Sequence record: MZ311865.1
Length of the DNA stretch: 64,000 nt
Source: Escherichia phage vB_EcoM_LNA2
Reading direction: 5' to 3' (one strand)
This document shows positions 25,409-44,574 of this stretch, one piece after another (the stretch's first letter is position 1; each line of letters begins with the position of its first letter). The position numbers were made by a program, and so were the translations under genes. Below the pieces are notes generated by a model, which was not told the DNA's origin, did no database searches, and worked only from the letters and a program-made list of their open reading frames with translations.

Positions 25409-25409
25409 A

Positions 25410-26587: not shown

Positions 26588-26595
26588 TTGAATTA

Positions 26596-26832
26596 TTAAC
26601 CAGCTACTGGTGTAGGCGTAAACATTGCGGCGTTCTTAGTTTTCCAATCAGATGCATCAGAAACTACAGTAGAATATGCTGCCTTTTCTGACGGAAAGAT
26701 TTGGTAATGAGAATCCGCAATCCGATGTTCGTTTGAATAAATCTCAAACGGCACAGAAACTTCCATACCTTTAACTTCTTTACCTTCACCAGCAGGATGC
26801 GTAAAGGTTTTGATGTTTACATAACCACCCAT
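26596..26832 (-). CDS. soc: Small outer capsid protein Soc
   Basis: 78 aa; GYVNIKTF...HYQIFPSEKAAYSTV... matches recalled T4 Soc; late promoter TATAAATA upstream. Confidence 0.85.
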   Translation of the reverse strand: MGGYVNIKTFTHPAGEGKEVKGMEVSVPFEIYSNEHRIADSHYQIFPSEKAAYSTVVSDASDWKTKNAAMFTPTPVAG

Positions 26833-26863
26833 AATTAACTCCTTTGTTGTTTAATTACAGGTG

Positions 26864-26871
26864 TATTTATA
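26864..26871 (-). promoter_or_regulatory. T4-type late promoter TATAAATA upstream of soc
   Basis: Minus-strand TATAAATA about 30 nt upstream of soc ATG. Confidence 0.55.
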
Positions 26872-26878
26872 TCAGTAA

Positions 26879-27400: not shown

Positions 27401-27490
27401 TATTTTTCCTTTCAATTCAGTATAAGAGAGTTTAATTCTAACATTAATTTTATAAAGCGTAATAAATAATAAGGTAACTAAGGAGATATT

Positions 27491-27688
27491 ATGTTTAAAC
27501 TTCCATCGTTAATCAACGCTATTAAAGGCAATAAAAAGAAAACTGCTATCGCTGCAATAGTTGTAGGTGGCATTATTTCATGGAACTTCGGGATTGCGCC
27601 ATTGTTAGTTGCCCATGGTGTTATGGTTCCTTCTGTTCCATTGGATACTGTAGTTGATTTGGCCTTTGCTATTATAGGGCTTGTTTAA
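27491..27688 (+). CDS. Small membrane protein, 65 aa (isolated + strand gene)
   Basis: ORF track; strong SD AAGGAG 7 nt upstream; hydrophobic; convergent with gene 61. Confidence 0.45.
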   Translation: MFKLPSLINAIKGNKKKTAIAAIVVGGIISWNFGIAPLLVAHGVMVPSVPLDTVVDLAFAIIGLV

Positions 27689-28707
27689 ATCTTAGAATAA
27701 TGAGATAATCTCATTTTAGCATGCAACCCACTTGAAATATTCTGTTTCATATATTCTAAAATTTCTTGTGGTGTTGCATTTTCTTTCATTACCATATCAT
27801 TCACATCCTTTGATCTCCACGGAGCTCGGTCCCAGAACATGACACGTTCGCCTGCATCAACTAATCGCTTCATGCGAGCTATAGTATCCGGATGCCTAGG
27901 TTCATTATCCATCACCCATACCCGACGTTCTTTAAATGGTACCACATCTAAATCTATTGAGCCGCCTGTAATAGCTATTGCATTGGGTATGAATAAACTA
28001 TCAATAGGGCCTTCCATTACCCAGACGTCTCCTTCCTTAACACGTTCAACACCATAAATTTTTGTTGCAGACTCAAATGCTTTAATAGTGATATATTTCT
28101 GAGGAGCATCTTTACGAAGTGCACGTCCTTGGAATGACTCAGCCTTCCCGTCTTTATTAAAAATAGGAATCACTAAACGTGGTTCGGGAATCTCTTTCTT
28201 ATACGTACCAGGTTGAATCTTGTTGACCAATTTAGGCCATTCTAATGTGAACCATAATCTGTTCCATGATTCTTTAGGAATGCATCGAGACTTAACATAT
28301 TTCACAATAGGATGCTCTTCAGGCAGCTTGTCCAGACGAGAACAAGACGGCAAAGAATTTATAGTCTTTTTCTCCGGTTCTGGTTTATGTTCAGGAACCT
28401 TTTCAATCTTTGGTTCCATTCTAGCTTTTTCTTTACGAACTTCCATTAGATATTCGCGGTAAAGCTCTTCATCATACTCTTTTAAGTATCCGGAAATTGT
28501 ATTGTGGTATTGGCAGTTATAGCAATGTACATTACCAGGAGTACCGCCATAATACCATCCACGAGCTTTCATTGCATCTGTCTGGGAGTCGCCACAAACT
28601 GGACAACGAAATGTTAATTTAAATGTGCTTGAATTATTGATTTGTCTAAAACGAGGTAGGTGAGAAAACGCACGATAAGCAAATTCATTATCTATCCATT
28701 CAGCCAT
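27685..28707 (-). CDS. 61: DNA primase gp61
   Basis: 340 aa; zinc-ribbon CPVCGDS...CYNCQ and TOPRIM-like region. Confidence 0.9.
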   Translation of the reverse strand: MAEWIDNEFAYRAFSHLPRFRQINNSSTFKLTFRCPVCGDSQTDAMKARGWYYGGTPGNVHCYNCQYHNTISGYLKEYDEELYREYLMEVRKEKARMEPKIEKVPEHKPEPEKKTINSLPSCSRLDKLPEEHPIVKYVKSRCIPKESWNRLWFTLEWPKLVNKIQPGTYKKEIPEPRLVIPIFNKDGKAESFQGRALRKDAPQKYITIKAFESATKIYGVERVKEGDVWVMEGPIDSLFIPNAIAITGGSIDLDVVPFKERRVWVMDNEPRHPDTIARMKRLVDAGERVMFWDRAPWRSKDVNDMVMKENATPQEILEYMKQNISSGLHAKMRLSHYSKI

Positions 28708-28746
28708 AGTATTCTCCAGAGGCCTTAAATTAATAAGGCCATCATA

Positions 28747-29214
28747 TCACAACTTATTAATATTTACTTTAATTCGCTTTCTTTTCTTGGAAGGAATTTG
28801 TTCTGGACCTTTATTTACGACTGCACCTGTAGTTGTTCCTGATGCAACAGCTTGAGGACTACCGCCTGAATCACCAGCAACCATATCCTCAAATAAAGGG
28901 AGTTCTTTAAATATTTCTTTCTGTTGTTCTTCCGTAATGTTATAGCGTGAAGCTACAGCACTCCAGGCAGACATCATTGAGGCCATTCCATTAAGACCTG
29001 GAACAGTGCTCATCATTCGCTTCATTGAACGAACTGAAGCATGAAAAGGTGTATAAGCCGCTTTCTCTTCGGGAGTAGAAGGACGTTTAAGAACACTTCC
29101 ACGTTCATCGATGATTTTGGCTTCGTATGCTTTCCATTCGGTAAAAGGTTTTTGCATTAGCCGAATAAACTTATATGCATAAACAGAATCTATTGCAGTG
29201 TTAATAATACCCAT
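28747..29214 (-). CDS. Hypothetical protein, ~155 aa
   Basis: ORF track 28747..29241 (TTG); ATG 29214 with AGGAGG SD. Confidence 0.5.
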   Translation of the reverse strand: MGIINTAIDSVYAYKFIRLMQKPFTEWKAYEAKIIDERGSVLKRPSTPEEKAAYTPFHASVRSMKRMMSTVPGLNGMASMMSAWSAVASRYNITEEQQKEIFKELPLFEDMVAGDSGGSPQAVASGTTTGAVVNKGPEQIPSKKRKRIKVNINKL

Positions 29215-29233
29215 AGGTACCTCCTGAGTATAT

Positions 29234-29431
29234 TTAATCAATTACAAAGATTGCTTTGTCACCATTTATATCTGTGACTTCATACGTAGTGCCTTCATAC
29301 TGTGGAATATTCCAAATTACACCATCATTAGCTTTTACGCTAATATGGCATTGGTGTTTTGAAACAACTTCATAATCTTCAAAACTTGTAAAAACACTAA
29401 TTTTAGAACCAGTGCAAATTGCAGTAGTCAT
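29234..29431 (-). CDS. Hypothetical protein, 65 aa
   Basis: ORF track; GAGGT SD. Confidence 0.45.
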   Translation of the reverse strand: MTTAICTGSKISVFTSFEDYEVVSKHQCHISVKANDGVIWNIPQYEGTTYEVTDINGDKAIFVID

Positions 29432-29432
29432 T

Positions 29433-30083
29433 TTAACCTCGATTCATAAATGCATTAAATATTTGGTCATCAACAGAAATTTCTAATTCGACTTCAATTG
29501 TTTCAGCCTTTTCTTCAGGTGGTAATTCGTATCCACACACTACAATTTTTTCATCGATATCAAAATATACAGAAGCAATACGATTAATGTTACTTTCAGT
29601 TAAGTCTAAATCAACATCAACATCTTTTTGACCTACACTTAAAGGATAACTAATACGGGTTATTTTATTATCTTTAACAAAGAGTCCACCGACATACTCT
29701 GTACTACGTTTGAAGTTTACACGTTTCCGAAATGAAAGATATGATGCATCTTTACCGTGAGCTCGGCTCATAGGACATAATGAATAGCTAGAATAAGAGA
29801 TGTCAAATCCTACACCTTCAATATGAGCCAACGCGTCATGATTAAACCAATTATAATCATATGCCAAATCCATTATATTGTAATATGTGAAAGGCACCGG
29901 ATTAACATCATACGTTGTACCTTTAAAATCTGCCCAGGCAACGATTTCGTTATCTTTAACAATTACAAAAATTACACCAATATGGTATCCGTTATTATTT
30001 TCGTTAGGCGTTATATTATAACATTGTGCATTAGGAAATTTACCATATTTAAATGGCGCATTTTTGTGCATATAATAAATCAT
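29433..30083 (-). CDS. Hypothetical protein, ~216 aa
   Basis: ORF track 29433..30092 (GTG); ATG 30083. Confidence 0.5.
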   Translation of the reverse strand: MIYYMHKNAPFKYGKFPNAQCYNITPNENNNGYHIGVIFVIVKDNEIVAWADFKGTTYDVNPVPFTYYNIMDLAYDYNWFNHDALAHIEGVGFDISYSSYSLCPMSRAHGKDASYLSFRKRVNFKRSTEYVGGLFVKDNKITRISYPLSVGQKDVDVDLDLTESNINRIASVYFDIDEKIVVCGYELPPEEKAETIEVELEISVDDQIFNAFMNRG

Positions 30084-30084
30084 A

Positions 30085-30378
30085 TTATTCACCTGTGATT
30101 TCGGTTACGATATCTTTGTTATCGAAATTAGGGTCACAATACAAAACATAATTGTACTGCATGATACCACCAGACTTAAGTTGTTCAACAACTTTATTAA
30201 CCATATTAGGACGGTCTCGTTTAGTGATGTTCATGATATCAGAGAAGATTTGTTGTTCAACATCTTCTTGATTTGCAGTCATTGACCACTCACAGAGGTC
30301 TTTATCATAACCTGCTGTAACTGGAGCCGGTGCACATGATACTGCAAGTAAGATTGCTGCCAATGATAACTTTTTCAT
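30085..30378 (-). CDS. sp: Spackle-like periplasmic protein (signal peptide)
   Basis: 97 aa; MKKLSLAAILLAVSCAPAPVTAGYDKDLCEWSM... signal peptide; size and position as T4 sp. Confidence 0.65.
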   Translation of the reverse strand: MKKLSLAAILLAVSCAPAPVTAGYDKDLCEWSMTANQEDVEQQIFSDIMNITKRDRPNMVNKVVEQLKSGGIMQYNYVLYCDPNFDNKDIVTEITGE

Positions 30379-30407
30379 TTTAACTCCTTAGTTGATTTGA
30401 TAGGACT

Positions 30408-30437
30408 ACTATACTATAGTCCATCTATAATGTAAAC
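30408..30437 (-). promoter_or_regulatory. Early promoter (GTTTAC-18-TATAGT) upstream of sp
   Basis: Minus strand. Confidence 0.55.
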
Positions 30438-30441
30438 AAGT

Positions 30442-30690
30442 TTATTCTTTTTCGCGAATAATAATTACTTGTTGAGGCTGCTGAGCAGATTTCTTTTCGG
30501 CAACGATAGACCAAATTAAAGTTCCAATCCAACCAATCATCGTCCAGTTAAAGAGTAAAGATACAAAGAAGATTGCTGTTGTGCTTTTTGTGCCACGAAT
30601 AAGTGCGATTACCCAAGGCAACATGTAAATGATGATTGAACCAATACCTGCGATTAAAACTGCTACTGAACTAGCTACGAATAATTCCAT
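30442..30690 (-). CDS. Two-TM inner-membrane protein, possibly superinfection-immunity-like
   Basis: 82 aa; ...YMLPWVIALIRGTKSTTAIFFVSLLFNWTMIGWIGTLIWSIV...; own early promoter. Confidence 0.5.
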   Translation of the reverse strand: MELFVASSVAVLIAGIGSIIIYMLPWVIALIRGTKSTTAIFFVSLLFNWTMIGWIGTLIWSIVAEKKSAQQPQQVIIIREKE

Positions 30691-33664: not shown

Positions 33665-34024
33665 TTAAAAGAATTTAAATTTTTTCTTGGTCCGTTCATT
33701 AAAAGCTTGTTGTACTTGCATTGTAATACATTTTTCAACATGCGGTGCAAGTTCTGCTTTTCTGTCCTGGTCAAGAACTGCAAAGTCCATTACGATTTTA
33801 CCATCAACCCAGTCTAGTTTTGTAATATAGACTATATGATGAGAACCATCTTCAAGTGTAATCAGAATCTCTTGAATGACATTTTCCATTGCTGAACGGA
33901 TAATTTTAAGAGATTCATTAAACACTCGTTCTTTGCGAATGTCTTCCCCTTCCGAAGAAGGGGATTCATCAACGATTTCTAGATTTAAATCATCGAGATT
34001 ATTCATCGAAATCTTCCATTTCAT
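33665..34024 (-). CDS. Gene 40-position protein, ~119 aa
   Basis: ORF track 33665..34027; overlaps uvsX 3' end; position between uvsX and 41. Confidence 0.45.
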   Translation of the reverse strand: MKWKISMNNLDDLNLEIVDESPSSEGEDIRKERVFNESLKIIRSAMENVIQEILITLEDGSHHIVYITKLDWVDGKIVMDFAVLDQDRKAELAPHVEKCITMQVQQAFNERTKKKFKFF

Positions 34025-35171
34025 CAAGGTCGTTTTCTATATCTGCTGCAGACGGAGCATCAGAAGTTTTAACCGGAACTTTAGTTGTTGCTTTGCAATT
34101 AATAAGGTCATTAACAGCGTCATCAACTTCTTTAATAGAAGAGATAGCACCTAGTTTATATTTAGTTTCAATTGCATCTCGGAAAGGTTTGTGTTTAAAC
34201 AAAGGTCCCCAGAATTCTACACAATCAGTAGCTTTAGCACGCCATGATTTTTCTTCACGAATCATTTCGCCAGTTTCTTCGTCAAGGAATTCACGAGCAT
34301 ACCAACCAGCTTTAGGCTTAACTACAAAACCAATTTCAGTTGCCATTTCTAACAAGCCACTGAATGGGTCGATACCACCATCAAAATTAACAGTGATTGG
34401 GAAAGTAGATTTTTCTTTAACGGTGCGAGATTTTTCCGCTTTCAACGTGAAGTCATAACCGGTCAATTCTGTACCTTCTTTAACCTGACGTTTAGAGATA
34501 AAAAATACCGTGTTGGCAGAATAAAGAATACCTGTACCACCACCCATAATCTCTTTAGGATACAATCCGCCGATTTCCATTGCTGTATGGTTGATTGCAA
34601 CACATGGAATATCTTTAATAGTCAGATAAGGAGTCACAATGCGGAACAGAGATTTAAGTGCCTTAGCACGAGACATATCACCTACAACTTTCTCGTTCAA
34701 TGCATCTTCAGTTTCTTTCTTAGATGCAGTATTACCGATTGAATCGATAAAGATAATAACTTTATCACCGCGTTCAATCGCGTCAAGCTGATTAGTCATA
34801 TCAACTTTAAGTTGTTCGACAGATTGAATCGGAGTATGAACTACACGGTCTAAATCAACACCCATTGAACGAAAATAAGATTCTGAAGCACCAAATTCAG
34901 AATCATAGAACAAACAAATTGCATCTTTATATTTCTTCATATATGCTGCAACCATGGTCAGCCCAAACAACGTTTTAAAGTGTTTAGAAGGAGCAGCAAA
35001 AATAGTTAAGCCTGATTGCAACCCGGCATTCAGTGCACCACCTAATGCAATATTCAACATCGGAATACGAGTAGGGACTTCATCACGATTATTAAACAGC
35101 TTAGACTTAGTCAAGTCTGCAGTCATTTTAGAAGTAGAAGCTTTAATCAGACGAGATTTTAAATCAGACAT
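33999..35171 (-). CDS. uvsX: Recombinase UvsX (RecA family)
   Basis: 390 aa; MSDLKSRLIKASTSK...; Walker A-type region; close to recalled T4 UvsX. Confidence 0.9.
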   Translation of the reverse strand: MSDLKSRLIKASTSKMTADLTKSKLFNNRDEVPTRIPMLNIALGGALNAGLQSGLTIFAAPSKHFKTLFGLTMVAAYMKKYKDAICLFYDSEFGASESYFRSMGVDLDRVVHTPIQSVEQLKVDMTNQLDAIERGDKVIIFIDSIGNTASKKETEDALNEKVVGDMSRAKALKSLFRIVTPYLTIKDIPCVAINHTAMEIGGLYPKEIMGGGTGILYSANTVFFISKRQVKEGTELTGYDFTLKAEKSRTVKEKSTFPITVNFDGGIDPFSGLLEMATEIGFVVKPKAGWYAREFLDEETGEMIREEKSWRAKATDCVEFWGPLFKHKPFRDAIETKYKLGAISSIKEVDDAVNDLINCKATTKVPVKTSDAPSAADIENDLDEMEDFDE

Positions 35172-35270
35172 TGTATTTTTCCATAGGCATCATTATATTT
35201 TACTCATGTTTAAAAGATAAGACGATTATATAATAAGGGTTATACAGCATTTAAAACTTTAAACAGGCTC

Positions 35271-35819
35271 TTAACGAGCCCATTTGATAATTTCTGTAAT
35301 CAAATTATTACGTTCGCTTGCATTAAATCCTATAACTTTGTTAGCACCATCATGATTAAGTAATTGATACGTTTGGATTTCGTTATGAATTGCAAACTCT
35401 TCAAAATATGAAATGACTGTATTAAAACCAAATGAAGACAAAGTAATAAGGTCGTCTTCAAAACTTTCAGTCATTTCGTTACGTGTTAAAATAATTGTGA
35501 ACACATCATGGTTTTGGCAAAGACGAACATAGTCCTGTTCATAAACGTCAAGAACCGAGTCCGCATCTTGTCGAATACGTCCGTAAACCCAGTTACTAAT
35601 ATATCCACGGTCTAATAGATAAATCTTAGTAGGGTCTAAATAATTCAACATCGTTTCGAAACAGCCAACTTCATTTCGAGACTTAACATCGAAACGTCCA
35701 TCAACTGTTCGTTTAGGGAAATCAATCTTTACATATCTTTCACTAATTTCCATTATGTCATTAATGAAAGTTGTTTTACCAGCATTATCTGGGCCATCTA
35801 CTAAAATAATTTTAGCCAT
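35271..35819 (-). CDS. P-loop kinase (nucleotide/nucleoside kinase-like)
   Basis: 182 aa; Walker A VDGPDNAGKTT; LLDRGYIS resembles dNK-type motif. Confidence 0.6.
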   Translation of the reverse strand: MAKIILVDGPDNAGKTTFINDIMEISERYVKIDFPKRTVDGRFDVKSRNEVGCFETMLNYLDPTKIYLLDRGYISNWVYGRIRQDADSVLDVYEQDYVRLCQNHDVFTIILTRNEMTESFEDDLITLSSFGFNTVISYFEEFAIHNEIQTYQLLNHDGANKVIGFNASERNNLITEIIKWAR

Positions 35820-35820
35820 T

Positions 35821-36720
35821 TTATTCCTCGATTACGACATCTTCATATTTAGGTATATTATACGGTGAAGAAATTAAAGCGTTAAAGTAGATGAACTCAC
35901 CAAGACCTGGATGGAATACTTCTTCAGGATTTTCGAAATATTGAATTTTCGGACGTCCTTTAAGAATTTGATAGTACTCAGTTTTAGTTGGTTTAAAAAT
36001 TCGAATCAACGCTTCTTCAGGATACTTATTTCTGTCGAAGCTATTATTTGGATCGGTTATATAAAGCGGTTGACCTAATTGAATTGCGCATTCAACAACT
36101 TGTTCAAAACGATAGCATGGGTCACTAATTCGAAATGGATGAAAAATACCATCTAGATGAATAGGAGCCAAATCACCTACAAGACGCTGCATGATGGAAG
36201 GACGTATAACTTTCTGCGTTACGATAATCTTATTACCATCTGCACCAGCGTTAACCAGCACTTCTTTTTGACGTTCATTCAACACAGTAGTTTGAAGTGA
36301 ACGATTAACCGACAACATATCGGTTTTTAAGAATTCGTCAATATAAAAACGTGGTTTATTAGGGTCTGCAGTGATATTGAAATTGAATTCCGCATCAAAA
36401 GCGCCGTCATATCCAGTGATATCTGTGATTAGAAAATCACAGTCATAATAAGCAATTAATGAATCAACCACAAATTCATTTTCAGACCAGAAATATTTAC
36501 GAGTGTTATACGCGTTATCTTTATACCATAATGGAACAAACTTAAATTCTGGAAAAAGACGTTCGCATTCTTTAATATCAGATGCATTACGTGGATATGT
36601 AATCACATCACCCGGATTAGCACGGTGCAAATGAAGTTGGAAGTTGCCATCCTTAAGGATAGCATACTGTCCAGTTTCATAAGACCGCATACTCAAGATA
36701 GGTACGCGGAAAATAGCCAT
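35821..36720 (-). CDS. Hypothetical protein, 299 aa (occupies T4 beta-gt position)
   Basis: ORF track; no recognised motif; TAATG-coupled to TS-like gene. Confidence 0.5.
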   Translation of the reverse strand: MAIFRVPILSMRSYETGQYAILKDGNFQLHLHRANPGDVITYPRNASDIKECERLFPEFKFVPLWYKDNAYNTRKYFWSENEFVVDSLIAYYDCDFLITDITGYDGAFDAEFNFNITADPNKPRFYIDEFLKTDMLSVNRSLQTTVLNERQKEVLVNAGADGNKIIVTQKVIRPSIMQRLVGDLAPIHLDGIFHPFRISDPCYRFEQVVECAIQLGQPLYITDPNNSFDRNKYPEEALIRIFKPTKTEYYQILKGRPKIQYFENPEEVFHPGLGEFIYFNALISSPYNIPKYEDVVIEE

Positions 36721-37436
36721 TAGTCAAGGAATCCTTTAACATAATCAAAATCACGTTCAAACACATGGGCACTTACCATGGTATGAGTATAATCACCAAC
36801 TTCTACACCACATTCTTTAGCGATATAATGAAGTAATTTTCCTTGGAGATAAAAATCCAACTGCATAACAACAGCACAGTTCTGAGAACGCATATGACAG
36901 TGGGTATAAAGCTTACCATCACGAATATAATAAGTCACTGAGTCAGTACATGGATATTCAAGTGTTTCGTCCGAATCAAGCAAAGCCTGATCAGAACTTT
37001 CTAGAATTTGGAACACAACTCTTCGAGAGTTAGGCTTCTCTTTAAGTTCTTTTAGAAGAGCTGGTAATTGGGCCGCAATGCGAGGACCATAGAAAGTGTT
37101 GAAGTTCGCCGGCAAAACATCTGATTTTGGTTTAGAAATAAATTTAGCGACATTAGGATATGCCTTAAACGCTTCTTCTGCGTTGGTACCACCAGAAATC
37201 ATAAACTTCCAGAAGTCTTCGGCATATTCATAAGAGATGCGGTTAATACGTGGGTCGGTCATTTTGAATGATGATGGAGTGTCAACAACTACTGTCATAG
37301 ACCCAATTTCATTACAACGTCCAATACGAGAATCAGTTACGAATTCCGGGTTTTCTAAAATTTCACGATTGACAGCTTTAAATGCGGATTGAAAATCTGC
37401 GGCTTTAATATATTTCATTGTGTTATGTTTTCCCAT
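36720..37436 (-). CDS. Thymidylate-synthase-family pyrimidine hydroxymethylase-like enzyme (gene 42 position, divergent)
   Basis: 238 aa; NSRRVVFQ, YPCTDSVTYY and MRSQN resemble recalled T4 gp42 DSRRGIMIY, FMCTNTVQY, MRSND, but overall divergent. Confidence 0.65.
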   Translation of the reverse strand: MGKHNTMKYIKAADFQSAFKAVNREILENPEFVTDSRIGRCNEIGSMTVVVDTPSSFKMTDPRINRISYEYAEDFWKFMISGGTNAEEAFKAYPNVAKFISKPKSDVLPANFNTFYGPRIAAQLPALLKELKEKPNSRRVVFQILESSDQALLDSDETLEYPCTDSVTYYIRDGKLYTHCHMRSQNCAVVMQLDFYLQGKLLHYIAKECGVEVGDYTHTMVSAHVFERDFDYVKGFLD

Positions 37437-37714
37437 GTTTACCTCAATACAATTTATTATATACTCAATTCATAAAGCTTATTTGAATTTCTTAGCGATG
37501 TTGATATAACGTAAAGCTTCAGCATCGATATTTCCAAGAACACTATGAAGAAATGCATCAGCGTAGTATTACAGTTGAACAGGTTCTTTAATCACTTTAG
37601 CCGCTTTAGTTTCAAACAGGCCCATCAGGGCCTTTTTAAGAATTTGTTCGTTAGTGTTCAGTTTCGTAGTCAAAATCTCTTCATTAAGTTGGTGGTTAAA
37701 AGTTTTTCTAGAAA

Positions 37715-38875
37715 TCATTCCGGGTACCTCAAAGCGTCATCAGAGTTAGTTATATCAATAATAGATATAGAGTTTTCTGATAACCCATTTTTAGATAACT
37801 GACGTTTATAATATCTTTCACAATATGTACACGTTGACCCACAGATTTCATTAGCACAATCGAAATCTGGATGTCTGAACCACCTTTTTTCTAAAAAGCC
37901 ATCTAACAAAGAGGTTTCAATATTTACTGTATGTGAAAACTCAGTTTCGTTTTCAAGAGTGAAAATAGTCTCTAAAGGCTTCCACAGTTCTAACAAATTA
38001 CCTTCAAACTTTTCAGAAGCGTATGCTTCAAGAACTTTCAAAATGTAGTCTGTGCTACCTGTACGTCCTGAAACTTTGAATTGAGTGATACCAATATCAT
38101 TATAAAGTTTCAAATCTTGAGGACGAACAAAACGAGTTCTCAACCAGTTAAATGGGTCTGTATCACGAGCTTTAATACAGTGCTGCATAGGATATCCGTT
38201 TAAGGATTTAGCATCATCAGCTGTAACATCAGTACTATGGAAAATATAGCAAGAGTCACGATAGCTACAATGTGTTGTATACCCTTTACCAGCATTAGAA
38301 CAGAACTCATTTACAAGAACTTCAAATATTATATTGTTCTTATTACAAAACTCTGCTGCACGCTTCAGGAAAGAAACTGAACGGTTCTTATGAATTCCAC
38401 AGCAGACCTTTTTGATATTATATTGGTCGTGCAAGTATTTGATTTGAGTTACAGCATCGACATGTAGAATTGTTGAAACTTCAATCTCAATGTCTTTATT
38501 GACTTCACGAACAATTTCCATAACAACAGGGTTAGCGATAGTAATACGCCATACGCCTATTGACCAAAGATACTGAACATAATCCTGAATAGCTTTCTTC
38601 TTCCACTCAACTAGTTCTCTTTTTGAACCAGGATTTATCGTGTTGAGTGTATAGTTAAAGCAAATACCTAATTCGTTACAACGTTTAACGTAATCTTCTA
38701 ACATCTTTTTGTCAACGTCAGGAAGCCTAAAATCAGGTCTGGCTGCTACAAAAGCCATTTCTCTTGTAGAGCCGTATACTTCGTTTATCAAGCTATTAGG
38801 ATAAGTTTTATTGAGCTCTACGATTTTATCAAGAAGAGCTAAATCAAAATTCGTTCCGATTTTAAAAGTATTCAT
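37715..38875 (-). CDS. Hypothetical enzyme with C-terminal Cys cluster, 386 aa
   Basis: ORF track; DCANEICGSTCTYCE cluster; no confident family. Confidence 0.5.
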   Translation of the reverse strand: MNTFKIGTNFDLALLDKIVELNKTYPNSLINEVYGSTREMAFVAARPDFRLPDVDKKMLEDYVKRCNELGICFNYTLNTINPGSKRELVEWKKKAIQDYVQYLWSIGVWRITIANPVVMEIVREVNKDIEIEVSTILHVDAVTQIKYLHDQYNIKKVCCGIHKNRSVSFLKRAAEFCNKNNIIFEVLVNEFCSNAGKGYTTHCSYRDSCYIFHSTDVTADDAKSLNGYPMQHCIKARDTDPFNWLRTRFVRPQDLKLYNDIGITQFKVSGRTGSTDYILKVLEAYASEKFEGNLLELWKPLETIFTLENETEFSHTVNIETSLLDGFLEKRWFRHPDFDCANEICGSTCTYCERYYKRQLSKNGLSENSISIIDITNSDDALRYPE

Positions 38876-38933
38876 TTTTTTGCATCTCGCGTTAATTGAT
38901 GCGATGGTTTTTTTGCAGGTCTTACTTAAATTA

Positions 38934-39335
38934 TTATAGATTCGGTTTATACGATTTAAATGTTTCGAATTCGCCTTTATTCATAAGAGCTTTGAATTCG
39001 TCAGGACGCATAGCTTTGTCGTCGATAATCCAATCATATACTGGTTTATGTGTTAGCAAATTATGGTACTTCAAGCCAATGTTTGCCAAGTTCTGAATCA
39101 GACTTGGGAGAATGTCAATTGCTATACGACCAGGACCTACTGACTTCATACCGCGAGCAGTGTAAAGCGTTATGGTATGCCCTGCATCATACAGAGCATT
39201 AATGGCAGACACCATTTCGGTGTCTGGTTTGAAGTTCACGTAATCACGATTGTTATTCCATTCCGTGATGCAATCATCGACATCAAAACAAAGATTAAGC
39301 ATGTTTTCTACACGGTGCATTAGATTCGTTCCCAT
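38934..39335 (-). CDS. HAD-superfamily phosphatase (KdsC/GmhB-like small phosphatase)
   Basis: 133 aa; motif I FDVDDCIT, motif II LYTAR, later K and IIDD. Confidence 0.6.
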   Translation of the reverse strand: MGTNLMHRVENMLNLCFDVDDCITEWNNNRDYVNFKPDTEMVSAINALYDAGHTITLYTARGMKSVGPGRIAIDILPSLIQNLANIGLKYHNLLTHKPVYDWIIDDKAMRPDEFKALMNKGEFETFKSYKPNL

Positions 39336-41005
39336 TGATGAGTGATATCGCCACCGATTGGACGATAGGAAACACCAGTTTCTTTATCAGTTAGTACCCA
39401 TTTACCAGGATTTTTTGTAATCAGAGTAGCCGTTACAGGTTCTGCTACGTCATAACTAATAGAGCCGTCTTGAAGTACACGGCCCATATTACGTAATTGC
39501 TTAGTCAGAAGTTCCATACCTTTATAATATGCGGCTACCGCTTTAAGTGGATTATTCTTGAAATAACCACCTAATGCAATCCAGATAATTGCTACAGCCA
39601 AATGATGATACTCGTTAAACGAACTCATCTTTCCATATTTGTAAACTAGTGGATTGATGTTAATAGTCACATTACAAGTTGTTTCGTCAATAGTAAACTG
39701 TCCCCAGGTCGGATTAGCGTTGAATTCATCATAACCTGAAACAGCATAAAGCACTTTAGCTTCATCGTACAATTTTGGCCCGTAAATCTTGGTTTCACCA
39801 AAATATCCACGAGGGTCGATAAACTTGACTTCGCCGTTATCAGTAATCATAGTATTACTGAAGTTCGGGTCGCCGTGAATAACAGAGTACTGTCCCTGAG
39901 AACGGTTATGATAACGAATAAGGTGTTCTAAAGCTTGTTTCAGCATTGGCTTCAGACGTCCAATCTTAGTGTAGTTCACATGTGTGATTTTACCAAATGA
40001 ATCAATCAATGGTTGAATGCTTTCACAACGATCAATAACTTTCGTATAGAATTCTTTAGTGAAATCACGACGAACAGTTTCAGGACTTACAAAATAAGTG
40101 TCTGTGCTGAATTTCAGTGCATCTAAAATTGCACCAACAATTTGTGGACGAGCAAGACTTGATTTGGATTTAATATATTCAAATGCCGGCTTACCTTTAA
40201 TGCGTTCCATTTCAAAGTTATTTTCATTAACAGAAACTAACTGAGGGACTGAATCTGATTTCACTTTAAGATACCATGAAATCTCATCTTTCTGAAGAGC
40301 TCGACCCTGTTCGGTTAATGCGAATTTAGTTACAGTTTCTTCACCAATTTCAACTGCATTAAAACTACGATTAAGTTCACGAACTTCATGAGCTTTTTCA
40401 AGTTTAGGCATATCACCTAAATCAATTAGATTCATAAGCTCTGATTTATTGAATGTGCTGCCGTAAAGGAATTCTACGAAATCACGTCCTTTGCAGTATT
40501 CATGAATTTCCTCATCAGTAGAACCCATATAGAATTCCCAGTCTTTGAACTGATAAATTCCTACAACATTACCACCTGTTGAACCTACGTTAGTGATATT
40601 TTCACCGTCGAAATTATATCGACATTCGTCACCCTTAACATAGATTGCGTTAACATTCCAAGACCATGAACCAAAATCGGGAATAATATCACACCAGTTA
40701 ACAATTACGTTATGGCCGTCTAAATCTTTGTGTAATTTAGCAAGAGCATAAGCAGAACCATACGCTTCATCAACTGTACGAATAGTCACATTGAACTCTT
40801 CTTGCTCACAATAAGCTCGAACAGTTTCAGCAAATTTTGAATGAACTACTACAATAATTTCATCTGCGCCAAGGTCAGAATAAATTGTATACAAATTGCT
40901 CAGAATAGTGTCTTGTTTATAGTTAACAAGCACCTTAGGAATATGATGCGTTATTGGATACAAACGAGTTGCTAATCCAGCACCAAGAATAACAGCTTTT
41001 TTCAT
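39320..41005 (-). CDS. Bifunctional sugar-1-phosphate nucleotidyltransferase / APH-type sugar kinase
   Basis: 561 aa; N-term KAVILGAGLATRL (G-x-G-T-R nucleotidyltransferase signature); C-term VIHGDPNFSNTMI...KFIDP (APH/choline-kinase catalytic motif). Confidence 0.65.
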   Translation of the reverse strand: MKKAVILGAGLATRLYPITHHIPKVLVNYKQDTILSNLYTIYSDLGADEIIVVVHSKFAETVRAYCEQEEFNVTIRTVDEAYGSAYALAKLHKDLDGHNVIVNWCDIIPDFGSWSWNVNAIYVKGDECRYNFDGENITNVGSTGGNVVGIYQFKDWEFYMGSTDEEIHEYCKGRDFVEFLYGSTFNKSELMNLIDLGDMPKLEKAHEVRELNRSFNAVEIGEETVTKFALTEQGRALQKDEISWYLKVKSDSVPQLVSVNENNFEMERIKGKPAFEYIKSKSSLARPQIVGAILDALKFSTDTYFVSPETVRRDFTKEFYTKVIDRCESIQPLIDSFGKITHVNYTKIGRLKPMLKQALEHLIRYHNRSQGQYSVIHGDPNFSNTMITDNGEVKFIDPRGYFGETKIYGPKLYDEAKVLYAVSGYDEFNANPTWGQFTIDETTCNVTININPLVYKYGKMSSFNEYHHLAVAIIWIALGGYFKNNPLKAVAAYYKGMELLTKQLRNMGRVLQDGSISYDVAEPVTATLITKNPGKWVLTDKETGVSYRPIGGDITHQWERI

Positions 41006-41033
41006 GTTGTGGTCCTCATTGGTAAGTAGGTGT

Positions 41034-41058
41034 ATTGTACACTATTCTAGTTAAAGCA
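41034..41058 (-). promoter_or_regulatory. Middle-promoter-like element (MotA box TGCTTTA, 12-nt spacer, TACAAT)
   Basis: Minus-strand AATGCTTTAA-N12-TACAAT about 30 nt upstream of the nucleotidyltransferase/kinase gene. Confidence 0.45.
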
Positions 41059-41190
41059 TTCATACTTTGCTTGTAGTCCAATCATAATCCATCCAATTAC
41101 AAGTGTTGGAATCATTACTGGAGCCGTTAAGCTCCAGTAGATAGTCATGGCAAGCATCAATAGTAAAAGTCCTATTGTTATTGCTTTCAT
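41047..41190 (-). CDS. Small hydrophobic protein, 47 aa (not in ORF track)
   Basis: Hand translation MKAITIGLLLLMLAMTIYWSLTAPVMIPTLVIGWIMIGLQAKYECFN; ATGA overlap with SIS gene. Confidence 0.35.
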   Translation of the reverse strand: MKAITIGLLLLMLAMTIYWSLTAPVMIPTLVIGWIMIGLQAKYECFN

Positions 41191-41822
41191 TGTTCGCCTC
41201 GTAACATGGCACCTAGTGCACCGCCTGGATGGAACTTAAGGAAGTCATTAGAGGTAAATCCACGTTCAGACGAAAGGTTGATAGCAAACGTATCGATAAG
41301 CGCTAACAACAATGTAGTGGACATAGTCGGAGCCAGAGAATTCTCATCAACCTCTACCGCGATGCCTGTACAGAAAGAGTAATCAAAAAGGGCTTCATTT
41401 TCTTGTGGAATGTCTGGGTTACAATGCAACAGAATCTGTTTGACGTTCGGTCGAATCATTTTAAGATGCTTAGCCACGCCTATCATTTCTTCAGTTTTAC
41501 CAGAACGACTAATATGAATCAACACATCATTAGGCGCAATGAATCCTGCATCACCGTGAGAATAATGCCCAGTGTTCAAGTACATACTCGGGATACCGAG
41601 TGAAGCAAATGTCTCAGAAGCTTTAGTTGCAATATTAGCATTCTTACCAACACCTGTAATAATTACTCGGCTTTCATAATTACTAAGTCCCGGGCGTCGA
41701 AGAGTTTCTAGAATAGCATTATAACGAGCAGGGTTTTGACTAATTACTTTGGCCATAGCGGCCAAAGAAGAAGCTTGTTTTATGATTGCGTCAATAGCGA
41801 TAGTAATAGGAGTAGTTTTCAT
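41187..41822 (-). CDS. SIS-domain sugar-phosphate isomerase, KdsD/GutQ arabinose-5-phosphate isomerase-like (no CBS domains)
   Basis: 211 aa; GVGKN...TFASLGIPS...HGD.G...ISRSGKTEE...LAPTMSTT...FHPGGALG parallels E. coli KdsD SIS domain as I recall it. Confidence 0.65.
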   Translation of the reverse strand: MKTTPITIAIDAIIKQASSLAAMAKVISQNPARYNAILETLRRPGLSNYESRVIITGVGKNANIATKASETFASLGIPSMYLNTGHYSHGDAGFIAPNDVLIHISRSGKTEEMIGVAKHLKMIRPNVKQILLHCNPDIPQENEALFDYSFCTGIAVEVDENSLAPTMSTTLLLALIDTFAINLSSERGFTSNDFLKFHPGGALGAMLRGEQ

Positions 41823-41862
41823 ATTTCTCTCATTTAATTAGTTTACCGTCCATGGCATTATA

Positions 41863-44574
41863 TCAAAAATCGAACATATCGAACAGAGATGCTTTCTTCT
41901 CGTAATCGAGTTTCGCTGCTGATGTGAATCCTTCAAGTGGTTTAATAAATGTCTTCTCAAGGAGAACAGTGTAGTCCATCCAATGAAGTACATCGTCTTT
42001 AATTAAATCTGTGATTTCAGTACCAGAAGGCCATGCGATACATTTATCACCGAATGGGTTTCCTTCACGTAAAGGCAGAACATATACTTTTTCACCTTCT
42101 ACAACTTGTGGTGCATCGATATTACCTTTGATAGCCCGGTTATACGTCAGAATTCCACGAATATGGAACGGGCATTTAGGACCAGGGAATCCACCGACGT
42201 CATATTTAGCAATGTTATTCGCAGAAGATACCGACGCGATGCTAATATAATTCAATTGACGGAATTCTTTTTCAAACTCTTTAAAATATTCTTGTAATGA
42301 TTCTTCACCTTCTTGAAGCATACGACGAATACATTCTTTAAGAGCTTTCTGTACTGCTTTAGGAGTCGAAGATTTCTGAGTCTCTAGACCCATGATTTTG
42401 AGTTTAGGCTCAGCGTAACGAGTACCTTCCATATCCCACACGTTTAATGCATAACGTTTCTTACCAGTCCAAAATCCGCCAATACCTTTAGAACCGAGTG
42501 GAGGCCCAGCGATAGCTTCTCGGTCCATGAACATTAAGTGTTGTTTATTGTTCATGTATTCACACATTTCACGGAAACCTCTATCAATAGCAGGTTCCAT
42601 ACGTTCATGTGCAAACTTATCTAAGAAGTCTACCCAATGGTTGGTATCACGGAATTTAGATTCACCAACCTTATCAATAATTTTATCTGCAGATACGTAA
42701 ATGGAGTCTGTATCACCATATAGAACGAAAGCTTCACCTTCTGTACCACAAACTTCATTCAGATATTCATTAACTTTACGTTCAATCCACTGTAAAGCCA
42801 TTTGCCCGAATGTTGTGATTGCAGTAGCATTACGCAAATCATAATAACGGAACCAAACGTTTCCAAGTGCACCATAAAGCGAGTTGATGAGCAATTTACG
42901 GTTAATCTGTGCAGTCATACCTGCAACTTCAGTACGTTGAGCTCTAAACAACATTTCATTAAGAGATTTAGCAGACAACTTTTTAATCTTTTCTTTAATC
43001 TCGTCAGTGAAGTCGAAACGATAATCAACATCTAATGGTTCGTCAACAGAAAGATTAGGATTATGCAATGCCTCTTTAATTATTTCACCATTACGTTGAG
43101 CTGCAAGCATGTAACCTTTATGTTCTTTACGTTGATTAAAGACCTTAGTGATTTCAGTTGGAACTACACCATCACGGTCTTTATAATACATCATGCCGTT
43201 AGGAGAACAACTGTACACATCAGAAGGACGTTCAGCAACAGCGTTAATATAATCATGCAATGGAGCTACTTTAAACGTTCCTGCTATTGTTTCTGGGCTA
43301 ATATTCACTTGGCGAATGATGCTTGGATACAGAGATGTAAGGTCGAAACTCATTACATATTTGTATCGATTTGGAATAGGTTCCTTAACAAAAGCGCCAG
43401 GATAAGGTTGAACCGGGTGAGAACGACCTTGTGGAATCACCTTGTTCTGCTCTTTAAGGCTATTAAAAATAATAGCATCCCATGTTTTAATTGGACTAAA
43501 CACAGATTGAATCTGTATCTTAGCATAATAACCCATGTCCAAACTCAAGTTGATGAACTGACGCTTAGCATCAATTTGCAATACACGATACACGTCGATA
43601 ATGTTATAAGAAATATATCGTTGGTGATTGCTTTCACGAAGCTTAGAAATAGGGCCGTCATATTTCAGTTTACCAACGTTCAATTCAAATTCTGAAATGT
43701 AATCCAGAGAATACGACGGTTGATTGGTAAAAGAGAATTTTTTGTAAAGGTCAATGTAATCAAGAACAGAGATACCGAACAATGTAATGATTTCACGAGA
43801 ACCATACATGTTTTCGATAACTTTAACACGAGTTTTACGATGTGGTGATAAACGTTTCGCAGTAGATTCGCCAAAAATATTCTTGATTCGGTTATACACA
43901 TATGGAATATCAAATGACTCAACGTTCCATCCAGTCAAAATGACAGGAGTTTTCTGTTGCCAGAAGTTGAGATATTCCATCAACAATTCTTTTTCGTTAT
44001 CGAACGGCATATAAATGATTTTATCGATAATTTCAGATGGAACTTCATCACCACCTTGTTCTTGAAGTTTAGCAGCGATTTCAATAGACCATTCTTCTAC
44101 ATTACCGTATGGAGAATTCAATAGATCAAATACGTAGAACCTGTCGTCAATTGAGTCATAATGGGTGATAGCATCAATCGGATGTTTTGCTTGTGACGGC
44201 TCAGGGAACCCATCTGGAGATGTTACTTCGATGTCGAAGTTAGCCACACGAATTTTTGTATGGTCGTATTTGATTTCATAGTTATAAGTGTCAGACAAAT
44301 ACGCCAATTTGAAATCGTCCATGCCAAGTGCTTCAAGTCCGATATCTTCCATGCGTTTAATCCATTGGGAGGCATCACGCATATTAGCGAACAACTTACG
44401 AGTACACGGCTTACCGTAGATATCGAAATATTTCGTAGCCTGACTTTCCGGACAATGAGCAAACAGTGATGGTTTATATTCTACTTCACGAGTACGTTCA
44501 CGGCCATTAGAATCGATGTAACGTTCAAAAATTGAATCACCAATCTGTTCAACCGTTAAGTAAAATTCTTTCAT
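41863..44574 (-). CDS. 43: DNA polymerase gp43 (family B)
   Basis: 903 aa; exo motifs FDIE; pol motifs DxxSLYPS and YGDTDS. Confidence 0.95.
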   Translation of the reverse strand: MKEFYLTVEQIGDSIFERYIDSNGRERTREVEYKPSLFAHCPESQATKYFDIYGKPCTRKLFANMRDASQWIKRMEDIGLEALGMDDFKLAYLSDTYNYEIKYDHTKIRVANFDIEVTSPDGFPEPSQAKHPIDAITHYDSIDDRFYVFDLLNSPYGNVEEWSIEIAAKLQEQGGDEVPSEIIDKIIYMPFDNEKELLMEYLNFWQQKTPVILTGWNVESFDIPYVYNRIKNIFGESTAKRLSPHRKTRVKVIENMYGSREIITLFGISVLDYIDLYKKFSFTNQPSYSLDYISEFELNVGKLKYDGPISKLRESNHQRYISYNIIDVYRVLQIDAKRQFINLSLDMGYYAKIQIQSVFSPIKTWDAIIFNSLKEQNKVIPQGRSHPVQPYPGAFVKEPIPNRYKYVMSFDLTSLYPSIIRQVNISPETIAGTFKVAPLHDYINAVAERPSDVYSCSPNGMMYYKDRDGVVPTEITKVFNQRKEHKGYMLAAQRNGEIIKEALHNPNLSVDEPLDVDYRFDFTDEIKEKIKKLSAKSLNEMLFRAQRTEVAGMTAQINRKLLINSLYGALGNVWFRYYDLRNATAITTFGQMALQWIERKVNEYLNEVCGTEGEAFVLYGDTDSIYVSADKIIDKVGESKFRDTNHWVDFLDKFAHERMEPAIDRGFREMCEYMNNKQHLMFMDREAIAGPPLGSKGIGGFWTGKKRYALNVWDMEGTRYAEPKLKIMGLETQKSSTPKAVQKALKECIRRMLQEGEESLQEYFKEFEKEFRQLNYISIASVSSANNIAKYDVGGFPGPKCPFHIRGILTYNRAIKGNIDAPQVVEGEKVYVLPLREGNPFGDKCIAWPSGTEITDLIKDDVLHWMDYTVLLEKTFIKPLEGFTSAAKLDYEKKASLFDMFDF

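Follow-up and report, generated by a model that had tools for sequence, protein, structure and literature searches.

A predicted arabinosyl-5-hydroxycytosine cluster in an RB69-like Escherichia phage, with a U32-family protein as a candidate oxygen-independent hydroxylase

Genes between uvsX and the DNA polymerase gene

The DNA analyzed here, referred to as the window, is a 64,000-nt stretch of Escherichia phage vB_EcoM_LNA2 (MZ311865.1), and its source is an RB69-like Mosigvirus. Translation of the open reading frames confirmed seven minus-strand ORFs in the region 35271-41822, flanked by uvsX (33999-35171) and the DNA polymerase gene (41863-44574), exactly where an earlier note, made from the sequence alone, had placed seven co-oriented genes. 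The motifs quoted in that note (GVGKN, LAPTMSTT, FHPGGALG, FDVDDCIT, GAGLATRL and HGDPNFSN) were all present in the translations, as was the P-loop motif GPDNAGKTT, and its assignments to the SIS, HAD, nucleotidyltransferase, kinase and thymidylate synthase (TS) families were backed by profile searches with Pfam, NCBIfam and PHROGs. The synteny comparison with RB69 showed that all 6552 nt of the region aligned to RB69 positions 24047-30598 with 98.4% nucleotide identity, and that the gene order between uvsX and gene 43 was the same as that of RB69 ORF045c-055c.

An additional small minus-strand ORF, overlooked in the earlier note, is located at 37569-37718, between the genes for the U32 protein and the TS homolog. 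It is a truncated homolog of RB69 ORF049c (PHROG 8601, unknown function), 49 aa long as compared to 79 aa in RB69, with a stop at codon 50 that results from a GAA-to-TAA change. An AroQ chorismate mutase (CM_2) was considered for this ORF and rejected, as neither RB69 ORF049c nor the read-through version from the window gave a match at E <= 1. The genuine phage chorismate mutase of Entb_45 showed no similarity to ORF049c, and in Yersinia and Serratia phages an ORF049c-type gene and a chorismate mutase gene are found side by side.

Predicted synthesis and arabinosylation of the modified base

The gene at 36720-37436 (minus strand, 238 aa) encodes the TS homolog (Pfam Thymidylat_synt, 1.8e-15), which corresponds to RB69 gp48 and is predicted to be a flavin/O2-dependent 5-hydroxy-dCMP synthase. 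In an ungapped register it carries L143E, D169N and N177D (ThyA numbering) with the catalytic Cys kept, as E160, N186, D194 and C163, respectively; this register is consistent with the HMMER coordinates. The three substitutions have been described as marking flavin/O2-dependent 5-hydroxy-dCMP synthases, with D169N distinguishing the hydroxylases (PMC13326640). At the D169 position, where Asp would mark a gp42-type dCMP hydroxymethylase, the phage enzyme has Asn186. The T4-type gp42 homologs were only about 26% identical to it, while 233 of its 238 residues (about 98%) are identical in PDB 9iqc/9ir2. The substitutions together with the identity to 9iqc refute the gp42-like function proposed in the earlier note. 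The RB69 enzyme makes 5-hydroxy-dCMP, as shown by expression and 18O2 labeling, and both mono- and di-arabinosyl-5-hydroxy-dC occur in the DNA of RB69 virions, with the arabinose ether-linked to 5-hydroxycytosine and not to a hydroxymethyl base (PMC13326640). Hence, the 5-hydroxymethyl-pyrimidine acceptor, which the note had also assumed, does not hold. The DNA of phage DLP3 likewise carries ara-5hoC, with the evidence for both phages coming from LC-MS and NMR (PMC13326640).

Two further proteins are assigned to the base branch. The gp56 dCTPase (26882-27400, minus strand), annotated from RB69 gp56 (97.1% identity in tblastn), is counted among the pathway members in Table 1 of PMC13326640. The gene at 35271-35819 (minus strand, 182 aa) encodes a predicted thymidylate-kinase-like P-loop nucleotide kinase (PHROG 761 'thymidylate kinase', 5.1e-45), which had no match in Pfam or by PDB sequence search; its RB69 homolog, gp45, is entered as 'nucleotide kinase' in the same table. 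A kinase of this type adjoins the transferase in most related clusters in the viral contig comparison, and we infer that it has a role in the ara-5hoC pathway. In this pathway, the dCTPase would remove dCTP and supply dCMP, leaving only modified dCTP for incorporation, and the TS homolog would hydroxylate dCMP at C5 using flavin and O2. Nucleotide kinases would then convert 5-hydroxy-dCMP to the triphosphate, which the polymerase would insert in place of dC.

The profile and PDB searches showed a complete set for the supply of UDP-arabinose, consisting of an isomerase, a bifunctional nucleotidyltransferase-kinase and a phosphatase. The predicted arabinose-5-phosphate isomerase (41187-41822, minus strand, 211 aa; RB69 gp55) matched Pfam SIS (1e-10), NCBIfam KpsF/GutQ (2e-32) and KdsD (7e-31), and PDB 3etn (2.6e-25), 5uqi and 2xhz. 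Because the KdsD profile was matched at positions 47-202 of 328 only, which is its SIS part, this protein lacks the CBS domain pair, in agreement with the earlier description of a KdsD-like isomerase without CBS domains. It would probably act like an arabinose-5-phosphate isomerase, yet it is not a full-length KdsD/GutQ. The 561-aa protein at 39320-41005 (minus strand; RB69 gp52:53, AfhE-like) is intact and appears, as had been proposed, to be a fused nucleotidyltransferase and kinase, with Pfam NTP_transferase at residues 3-99 (4.9e-10), weak kinase-family matches at 354-409, and further matches to NCBIfam sugar-1-phosphate nucleotidylyltransferases and PDB 1jyk (5e-05). The RB69 counterpart was established as a single ORF of 561 residues by re-sequencing (PMC6024577). 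The small HAD phosphatase (38934-39335, minus strand, 133 aa; RB69 gp51, AfhF-like), also recognized in the earlier note, matched the NCBIfam capsule-biosynthesis phosphatase (3e-13), is related to 1xpj, and is near-identical to PDB 9iqw_A (2.8e-87, 292.6 bits, 129 residues); it is predicted to convert Ara-1,5-P2 to Ara-1-P. The PDB entries 9iqc, 9ir2, 9iqu and 9iqw presumably belong to He et al. (Nat Chem Biol 2026), judging from the series of entry codes and the citing text.

The order of steps in this branch differs from that in the earlier note, which had proposed a route from Ru5P through free pentose to NDP-pentose. The phage-encoded route from Ru5P through Ara5P to NDP-arabinose stands, while the free pentose is not supported: in the HY126 biochemistry of He et al., as related in PMC13326640, the kinase first converts Ara5P to Ara-1,5-P2, from which the HAD phosphatase makes Ara-1-P, and UDP-Araf is the donor made after it. 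Table 1 of that paper keeps the other order, in which gp51 'dephosphorylates Araf5p to Ara' and the kinase domain 'phosphorylates Ara to Araf1p', and the kinase-first correction follows He et al. as relayed there. On this order, Ara5P would be formed from host Ru5P by the isomerase and turned into Ara-1,5-P2 by the kinase domain at the C-terminus of the 561-aa protein; the HAD phosphatase would then remove the 5-phosphate, and the N-terminal nucleotidyltransferase domain would join Ara-1-P and UTP into UDP-arabinofuranose. The DNA chemistry and the hydroxylase, kinase, phosphatase and pyrophosphorylase steps have been shown experimentally in RB69, DLP3 or HY126.

The intact 299-aa protein encoded at 35821-36720 (minus strand; RB69 gp46:47), which the earlier note had left as unknown, had no match in Pfam or by PDB sequence search. 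Its AlphaFold2 model (pLDDT 93.7) matched glycosyltransferases of the GT-B fold in Foldseek (E about 1e-6), including MshA 3c4q (TMq 0.62), the pterin glucosyltransferases 9v0l and 5zer, and 6kih. The model suggests a GT-B arabinosyltransferase, predicted to be the first to act on 5-hydroxycytosine, and gp46:47 was likewise assigned as an arabinosyltransferase (PMC13326640). A homolog of RB69 ORF003c (gp3), located outside the seven-gene region at 14077-15174 (minus strand; 98.9% identity over 366 aa in tblastn), is the predicted second arabinosyltransferase, following the assignment of gp3 in PMC6024577 and PMC13326640. The GT-B enzyme would attach the first arabinose to the 5-OH and the gp3 homolog would add the second, although we infer which of them acts first. 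In published assays, single glycosyltransferases were inactive on 5hoC DNA and the first glycosyl transfer was not reconstituted (PMC13326640).

The pathway could also be read as it was in the earlier note and in the 2018 model, with a gp42-type dCMP hydroxymethylase, arabinosyl-hydroxymethylcytosine DNA, and a route from Ara5P to Ara, Ara-1-P and NDP-Ara. This agrees with Thomas et al. 2018 (PMC6024577), who assigned ara-hmC on the basis of HPAEC and MALDI, and with the free-arabinose labels retained for gp51 and the kinase domain in Table 1 of PMC13326640. The ether link determined by NMR and LC-MS, the 18O2 labeling, which gave 5-hydroxy-dC and not hm-dC (PMC13326640), and the hydroxylase signature Asn at the ThyA D169 position argue against it, as does the text of PMC13326640, which follows the HY126 route without free arabinose. 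The hydroxymethyl-base version is already largely refuted, and we consider this reading very improbable. Even less credible is a reading of the isomerase, HAD and nucleotidyltransferase genes as auxiliary metabolic genes, whose products would change the synthesis of host capsule or LPS (KDO-type) and not phage DNA. Their nearest bacterial families are indeed KpsF/KdsD and 'capsule biosynthesis phosphatase', but they are tightly linked to the 5-hydroxy-dCMP synthase and DNA glycosyltransferase genes in many phage lineages, and arabinose was found on RB69 DNA itself (PMC6024577, PMC13326640). By transfer from RB69, the seven-gene block is very probably an arabinosyl-5-hydroxycytosine (ara-5hoC) DNA-hypermodification cluster. 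The RB69 identity and the published work bear out the hypermodification island with a phage-borne donor pathway that the earlier note had envisaged, and the 98.4% identity together with the published RB69 chemistry confirms the link to RB69 arabinosylation that it had raised. The cluster has already been characterized (Thomas 2018, PMC6024577; Lee et al. NAR 2026, PMC13326640), with He 2026 and Mahler 2025 cited in PMC13326640, and because of this the cluster finding as noted adds nothing new.

The U32-family protein

The gene at 37715-38875 (minus strand) encodes a 386-aa protein corresponding to RB69 gp50. It too had been noted as unknown, and it belongs to the Peptidase_U32 family (PF01136; 7.3e-11, 42.2 bits with a cutoff of 22.4), while its best NCBIfam match was UbiU, with 18.5 bits only. 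The closest structure to its AlphaFold2 model (pLDDT 87.4) was 5d88, and hhalign comparison with E. coli UbiU/UbiV/TrhP/RlhA gave 96% probability. In this alignment, C203, C209 and C233 fall on C169, C176 and C232 of UbiU, while UbiU C193 is unpartnered and the fourth ligand may be C192, which is invariant. The published 4Fe-4S motif of U32 hydroxylases contains four Cys in the spacing CX6CX15-16CX3/4 or X38C, from which the phage subfamily departs (C192-x10-C203-x5-C209-x23-C233). The subfamily has ten invariant Cys, including an extra C-terminal cluster (C340-x4-C345-x3-C349-x2-C352). The HY126 protein is 99.7% identical to that of the window, and no explanation of its role was found in the accessible literature.

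The neighborhoods of homologs of the 299-aa transferase were compared among 74 viral contigs. The data showed that the transferase always adjoined a hydroxylase-type TS homolog, U32, or both. Chorismate mutase (CM_2) or DAHP synthase genes were present beside U32 in 18 of the 34 U32-containing contigs and in none of the 38 TS-only contigs (Fisher p = 5e-8). Across the 74 contigs these genes accompany U32 only, while flavodoxin-like genes accompany the TS homolog only, which suggests that U32 is a prephenate-dependent, O2-independent hydroxylase. These patterns of co-occurrence are new here. Hence, the U32 protein is a candidate for hydroxylating cytosine at C5, either in a deoxynucleotide or in DNA, and would be a non-homologous alternative to the TS-like synthase; we give this proposal an even chance, and the same holds for the corollary that U32 would enable phages of the gut to form DNA with 5-hydroxycytosine when oxygen is absent. 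In the phage studied here it may serve as a second, prephenate-dependent hydroxylase under low oxygen, while in many uncultured phages it would be the sole such hydroxylase. The two types of hydroxylases would, by analogy, parallel the TrhO/TrhP, UbiIHF/UbiUV and NrdAB/NrdDG pairs. No statement of an O2-independent hydroxylase reading of phage U32 was found in the literature searched, which did not cover He et al. 2026 and Mahler et al. 2025.

The U32 protein could instead belong to the sugar branch, or be a generic reductase or protease. It is annotated as 'sugar or heterocycle reductase' (PMC13326640 Table 1) and, in a BASEL phage record, as 'putative enzyme involved in UDP-arabinose biosynthesis'; its gene lies between those for the HAD phosphatase and the TS homolog, and its TIM-barrel fold is common to many sugar enzymes. 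On the other hand, DLP3, other Acinetobacter phages and JS98-like phages lack U32 but carry the TS homolog and the complete set of arabinose genes, and since DLP3 makes ara-5hoC (PMC13326640), U32 is not needed for UDP-arabinose. Additionally, six uncultured contigs contain contiguous kinase, transferase and U32 genes and lack genes for arabinose activation within 10 kb. The chorismate mutase or DAHP synthase genes that co-occur with U32 likewise indicate a connection to prephenate rather than to sugar chemistry. We regard a function other than base hydroxylation as unlikely.

It is the U32 protein that could matter in this cluster. If the hydroxylase proposal is true, this protein would be the first of the U32 enzymes to be tied to DNA precursors, and its activity would account for replication in the anoxic gut by phages that otherwise have only an O2-requiring hydroxylase known. 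Prephenate-dependent hydroxylation could then be demonstrated in vitro with a system that is compact and genetically tractable; so far, no U32 protein has yielded such a demonstration (PMC10990095). The proposal would also make 5-hydroxypyrimidine DNA predictable in many uncultured phages without a TS-type enzyme.

Comparison with known systems

The RB69 gp45-gp55 cluster shares with the window its genes, their order, the uvsX and DNA polymerase flanks, and the gp3 and gp56 homologs. The RB69 reference record has sequencing frameshifts in the 299-aa and 561-aa genes, which are both intact in the window, while the ORF049c homolog, unlike RB69 ORF049c, ends at a premature stop. The DLP3 gp76-83 cluster has two additional transferases, and it lacks the U32 and ORF049c genes, homologs of which are present in the window. 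In the HY126 Afh pathway, the deposited TS homolog and HAD phosphatase chains are near-identical to those of the window. The isomerase has the SIS catalytic domain in common with KdsD/GutQ, as shown by strong profile and PDB matches, while lacking their C-terminal CBS pair, in which it resembles the SIS-only enzymes 3etn and 5uqi.

The T4 glucosylation genes (gp42, gp56, gp1, alpha-gt and beta-gt) occupy the same genome position as the window cluster. Both systems use a TS-family enzyme to modify dCMP ahead of replication, a dCTPase to keep dCTP out, and glycosyltransferases to add sugar to the base. In contrast to T4, the added group is a hydroxyl and not a hydroxymethyl, and the cofactor is flavin with O2 and not folate; the phage makes its own sugar donor, where T4 draws on host UDP-glucose, and the transferases are unrelated in sequence. 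The ara-5hoC cluster explains the resistance of RB69-like phages to many restriction enzymes and CRISPR nucleases, as well as their inability to recombine with T4, both of which are already published.

The phage U32 protein shares PF01136 with E. coli RlhA (ho5C2501 in 23S rRNA), TrhP (ho5U34 in tRNA) and UbiU/UbiV (ubiquinone), and three Fe-S Cys ligands align. The C5 hydroxylation of cytosine by RlhA is the same reaction as that proposed for the phage protein, which is linked genomically to enzymes producing prephenate, the oxygen donor or requirement of the E. coli factors (PMC10990095). The phage proteins form a subfamily apart from UbiU/V, TrhP and RlhA, with a different Cys spacing and the additional C-terminal Cys cluster, and they would act on a deoxynucleotide or on DNA, while the E. 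coli factors act on RNA or quinone.

Gene block and the published arabinosylation pathway

The block between uvsX (33999-35171) and the DNA polymerase gene (41863-44574) contains seven ORFs on the minus strand (35271-41822), all of them where the earlier note had placed them, and every sequence motif which it cited was found in the encoded proteins. The searches upheld its enzyme-family assignments. The isomerase is a KdsD/KpsF-type protein consisting of the SIS part only (SIS domain 1e-10; profile searches, NCBIfam), which matches the PDB entries 3etn, 5uqi and KdsD 2xhz, and the HAD protein is a capsule-type HAD phosphatase (NCBIfam), near-identical to PDB 9iqw. The 561-aa protein (39320-41005) showed an N-terminal sugar-1-phosphate nucleotidyltransferase domain and weak C-terminal kinase matches in profile searches, and the 182-aa protein is a thymidylate-kinase-like P-loop protein (PHROGs). 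The two proteins previously listed as unknown could also be assigned: the 386-aa protein (37715-38875) is a Peptidase_U32 protein (7.3e-11 in a profile search; U32 hereafter), and the 299-aa protein (35821-36720) adopts a GT-B fold in an AlphaFold2 model (pLDDT 93.7), with MshA, pterin glucosyltransferases and 6kih as the nearest structures. Sequence searches of the PDB gave no match for the U32, 299-aa and 182-aa proteins. The base composition along the block was not unusual, and a promoter and terminator scan of 35000-42000 stayed at chance level. The window also contains a homolog of gp3, a predicted second arabinosyltransferase (14077-15174), and a dCTPase gene (26882-27400).

From end to end, the region shares 98.4% identity with positions 24047-30598 of RB69 (ORF045c-055c), and it also resembles about 150 further Mosigvirus genomes. 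The window differs from the RB69 reference record: the 299-aa and 561-aa genes are each one intact ORF here, while the reference breaks both in two (ORF046c/047c and ORF052c/053c; 4551-5451 and 8048-9734 in the RB69 locus of our survey, L001). This observation backs the published view that both splits result from frameshifts introduced by sequencing errors (PMC6024577; PMC13326640).

The arabinose on RB69 DNA was described by Thomas et al. 2018, who already presented this eight-gene module, with ORF003c, ORF053_52c and ORF055c as the transferase and UDP-arabinose candidates (PMC6024577). Mono- and di-arabinosyl-5-hydroxy-dC were identified in RB69 DNA by LC-MS and NMR, with a direct ether bond between the arabinose and C5 of the base (Lee et al. 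NAR 2026, PMC13326640), and the 299-aa protein and gp3 were proposed as the first and the second arabinosyltransferase, respectively (PMC13326640). In phage HY126, according to the part of He et al. 2026 that is relayed in PMC13326640, a bifunctional enzyme converts arabinose-5-phosphate (Ara5P) to Ara-1,5-P2, the HAD phosphatase yields Ara-1-P, and the nucleotidyltransferase domain yields UDP-arabinofuranose. The order of steps in PMC13326640 itself is contradictory, as its Table 1 places the phosphatase first (Ara5P to Ara to Ara-1-P), while its text places the kinase first (Ara5P to Ara-1,5-P2 to Ara-1-P).

The central idea of the earlier note, that the phage carries its own route from ribulose-5-phosphate to an NDP-arabinose for DNA glycosylation, in place of the host UDP-glucose used by T4, is correct and already published, while three of its specifics are wrong. 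The acceptor is 5-hydroxycytosine, as determined by LC-MS and NMR for RB69 (PMC13326640), rather than a 5-hydroxymethyl-pyrimidine; the thymidylate-synthase (TS) family enzyme is a flavin/O2 hydroxylase, as indicated by its residue signature and the data on RB69 gp48 (PMC13326640), rather than a gp42-type hydroxymethylase; and the free pentose intermediate has no place in the HY126 order as relayed, while Table 1 of PMC13326640 still has the order of the note. The reading of the note is thus partly right and already in the literature, and U32 is the sole part of the finding that might be new.

TS-type hydroxylase and U32 beside the transferase gene

The TS homolog of the window (36720-37436) has a thymidylate-synthase domain (1.8e-15 in a profile search) and is identical to PDB 9iqc/9ir2 at 233 of 238 residues. 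Its RB69 counterpart, gp48, converts dCMP to 5-hydroxy-dCMP, takes in 18O from O2, and co-purifies with flavin (PMC13326640). The window protein retains the catalytic Cys and R166/S167, and has E160, N186 and D194 at the positions of ThyA L143, D169 and N177, as compared in an ungapped register in the D169/N177 region, which was backed by equal segment lengths and HMMER coordinates. The E/N/D residues at these positions are the published hydroxylase signature (PMC13326640), which was present in 47 of the 49 distinct TS sequences located beside or near the transferase gene.

Two sets of IMG/VR loci, one centered on U32 and the other on the 299-aa transferase family, served to survey the gene neighborhoods over 10 kb to either side on each contig. 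A transferase homolog was present on 74 distinct contigs, of which 38 contained only the TS homolog, 18 only U32, 16 both (15 of these from Straboviridae), and two, both of them fragments of about 4 kb, neither. The sole non-Straboviridae contig with both genes beside the transferase gene (IMG/VR 3300028591_000080, 230 kb; 5491-11086 in locus L028) encodes a TS with the canonical ThyA signature (LCRDN; L143, D169, N177), and for this reason the enzyme probably acts as a normal thymidylate synthase rather than as a hydroxylase.

A gene of the Flavodoxin_2 family was present in 15 of the 38 TS-only contigs and in none of the 34 that contain U32 (p = 1.5e-5), while genes for chorismate mutase (CM) and/or DAHP synthase (DAHPS) were present in 18 of the 34 U32-containing and in none of the 38 TS-only contigs (p = 5e-8), with Fisher tests that overstate independence since the contigs are mutually related. 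CM and DAHPS were counted as one class, because the second-round DAHPS HMM cross-matched stand-alone CM and some seeds were DAHPS-CM fusions; examples, such fusions among them, were confirmed with Pfam. On uncultured viral contigs, genes of this class, encoding DAHPS, DAHPS-CM fusions or stand-alone CM, lie immediately beside U32 at 8399-9430 in L037, 7290-8354 in L040, 8323-9384 in L041, 8145-8891 in L008, and 11107-11433 in L043. On one contig the homologs of the transferase, the isomerase and the nucleotidyltransferase-kinase are followed by U32 and then directly by a Bacillus-type DAHPS gene. The genes of the U32-only clusters are packed in the same orientation, and in six of these clusters the kinase, transferase and U32 genes are contiguous. 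To our knowledge, phage-borne shikimate-pathway genes (DAHPS, CM) beside U32 have not been described before.

In these 15 of the 38 TS-only clusters the Flavodoxin_2 gene, which encodes an NAD(P)H-flavin oxidoreductase-like protein, is located directly upstream of a hydroxylase-type TS (for example, 8715-9275 in L011, 2605-3123 in L010, and in L083-L098), which fits a dedicated flavin-reducing partner of the 5-hydroxy-dCMP synthase. The cluster of the RB69-like phages is without a Flavodoxin_2 gene.

In Straboviridae, too, U32 is linked to prephenate: a genuine CM gene is located between U32 and the TS homolog in 51 records of phages infecting Klebsiella, Serratia, Yersinia, Enterobacter, Edwardsiella, Erwinia, Shewanella and other hosts; the CM of the representative Entb_45 scored 40.9 bits on Pfam CM_2 (cutoff 27). 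The RB69-like phages have no CM gene, and their small ORF049c (PHROG 8601, of unknown function) is unrelated to CM. The idea that ORF049c is the CM annotated in related phages was rejected, as ORF049c had no CM_2 match and did not resemble the true CM of phages, and the two genes occur together in some genomes. Between U32 and TS, Yersinia phages TG1 and fHe-Yen9-01 (L020/L023) and Serratia phage 92A1 have both CM and a gene similar to ORF049c, and therefore the fullest module is U32, ORF049, CM and TS, from which the RB69-like phages have lost CM. The ORF049c homolog of the window (37569-37718, minus strand) is truncated to 49 aa, compared to 79 aa in RB69, by a single GAA-to-TAA change (stop codon at 37569-37571), beyond which the 30 codons are otherwise conserved. 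Because the match of phages PHB12 and DCP548 covers only ORF049c residues 1-47, they may share this stop. No database record exceeded 97.9% identity over this stretch of 291 nt.

Properties and possible role of U32

The RB69 counterpart of U32, gp50, appears in PMC13326640 in one line of Table 1, as a "sugar or heterocycle reductase", with no discussion, and it is annotated in other records as a peptidase or as a UDP-arabinose enzyme. In E. coli, the proteins of the U32 family are O2-independent hydroxylation factors (PMC10990095). The 5-hydroxycytidine at position 2501 of 23S rRNA depends on RlhA, and 5-hydroxyuridine in tRNA depends on TrhP, with direct in vitro activity yet to be demonstrated for each of UbiU/V, RlhA and TrhP (PMC10990095). 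The profile of the phage U32 family matched UbiU/UbiV/TrhP/RlhA with 96% probability in a profile-profile comparison, and the profile alignment placed phage C203, C209 and C233 at the UbiU Fe-S ligands C169, C176 and C232. The structure nearest to the U32 model (pLDDT 87.4) was 5d88, the only solved U32 structure. Ten cysteines are invariant in the phage family, and some of them form a C-terminal C-x4-C-x3-C-x2-C cluster at residues 340-352 (CANEICGSTCTYC), beyond residue 286, where the alignment to the E. coli proteins stops. The last three are spaced as CxxxCx(aromatic)C, a pattern typical of radical-SAM clusters, and this C-terminal cluster hints at a second metal site.

U32 was found in phages of Enterobacterales and Shewanella, and it was at most marginal among 65 Acinetobacter records. 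It was absent from Acinetobacter phage DLP3, which makes arabinosyl-5-hydroxycytosine (ara-5hoC) and in which the HAD gene directly abuts the TS homolog; U32 is dispensable for arabinose. Since JS98-like E. coli phages are without U32, the distribution gives only weak support to the idea that the presence of U32 tracks the oxygen lifestyle of the host. Distant U32 homologs (46-58% identity) adjoin genes for dCMP deaminase, thymidylate kinase, NT5C and deoxynucleoside kinase. On large contigs with a Pol III alpha gene, one of them 466 kb long, the dCMP-deaminase gene directly precedes or overlaps U32 (7447-9086 in L003, 6504-8083 in L009, and L049). These three loci had no 299-aa transferase homolog within reach, and the substrate of their U32 might be dUMP rather than dCMP.

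The gene for the 182-aa Tmk-like kinase adjoins that of the transferase (35271-36720) in most lineages, with either type of hydroxylase, and the first arabinosyl transfer on 5hoC DNA is still to be reconstituted (PMC13326640). Together, these observations make it conceivable that the mononucleotide receives the first sugar, and that the kinase then acts on the glycosylated nucleotide.

The transferase family needs a 5-hydroxyl acceptor, and its companion is a hydroxylase-type TS, U32, or both, each of which comes with a cofactor-supply gene of its own. Read most simply, this gene context makes U32 a candidate alternative hydroxylase, a reading to which we give about an even chance of being correct. 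No text on a role of U32 in ara-5hoC was found in the literature covered, outside of which were He et al. 2026 and Mahler et al. 2025, so that earlier publication is possible. As an alternative hydroxylase, U32 would act on dCMP, dUMP or DNA, and the enterobacterial Straboviridae, which keep both U32 and the TS-type hydroxylase, could use them in anoxic and aerobic growth. In place of O2, the phage U32 would use prephenate, which is the oxygen donor of UbiU/V (PMC10990095).
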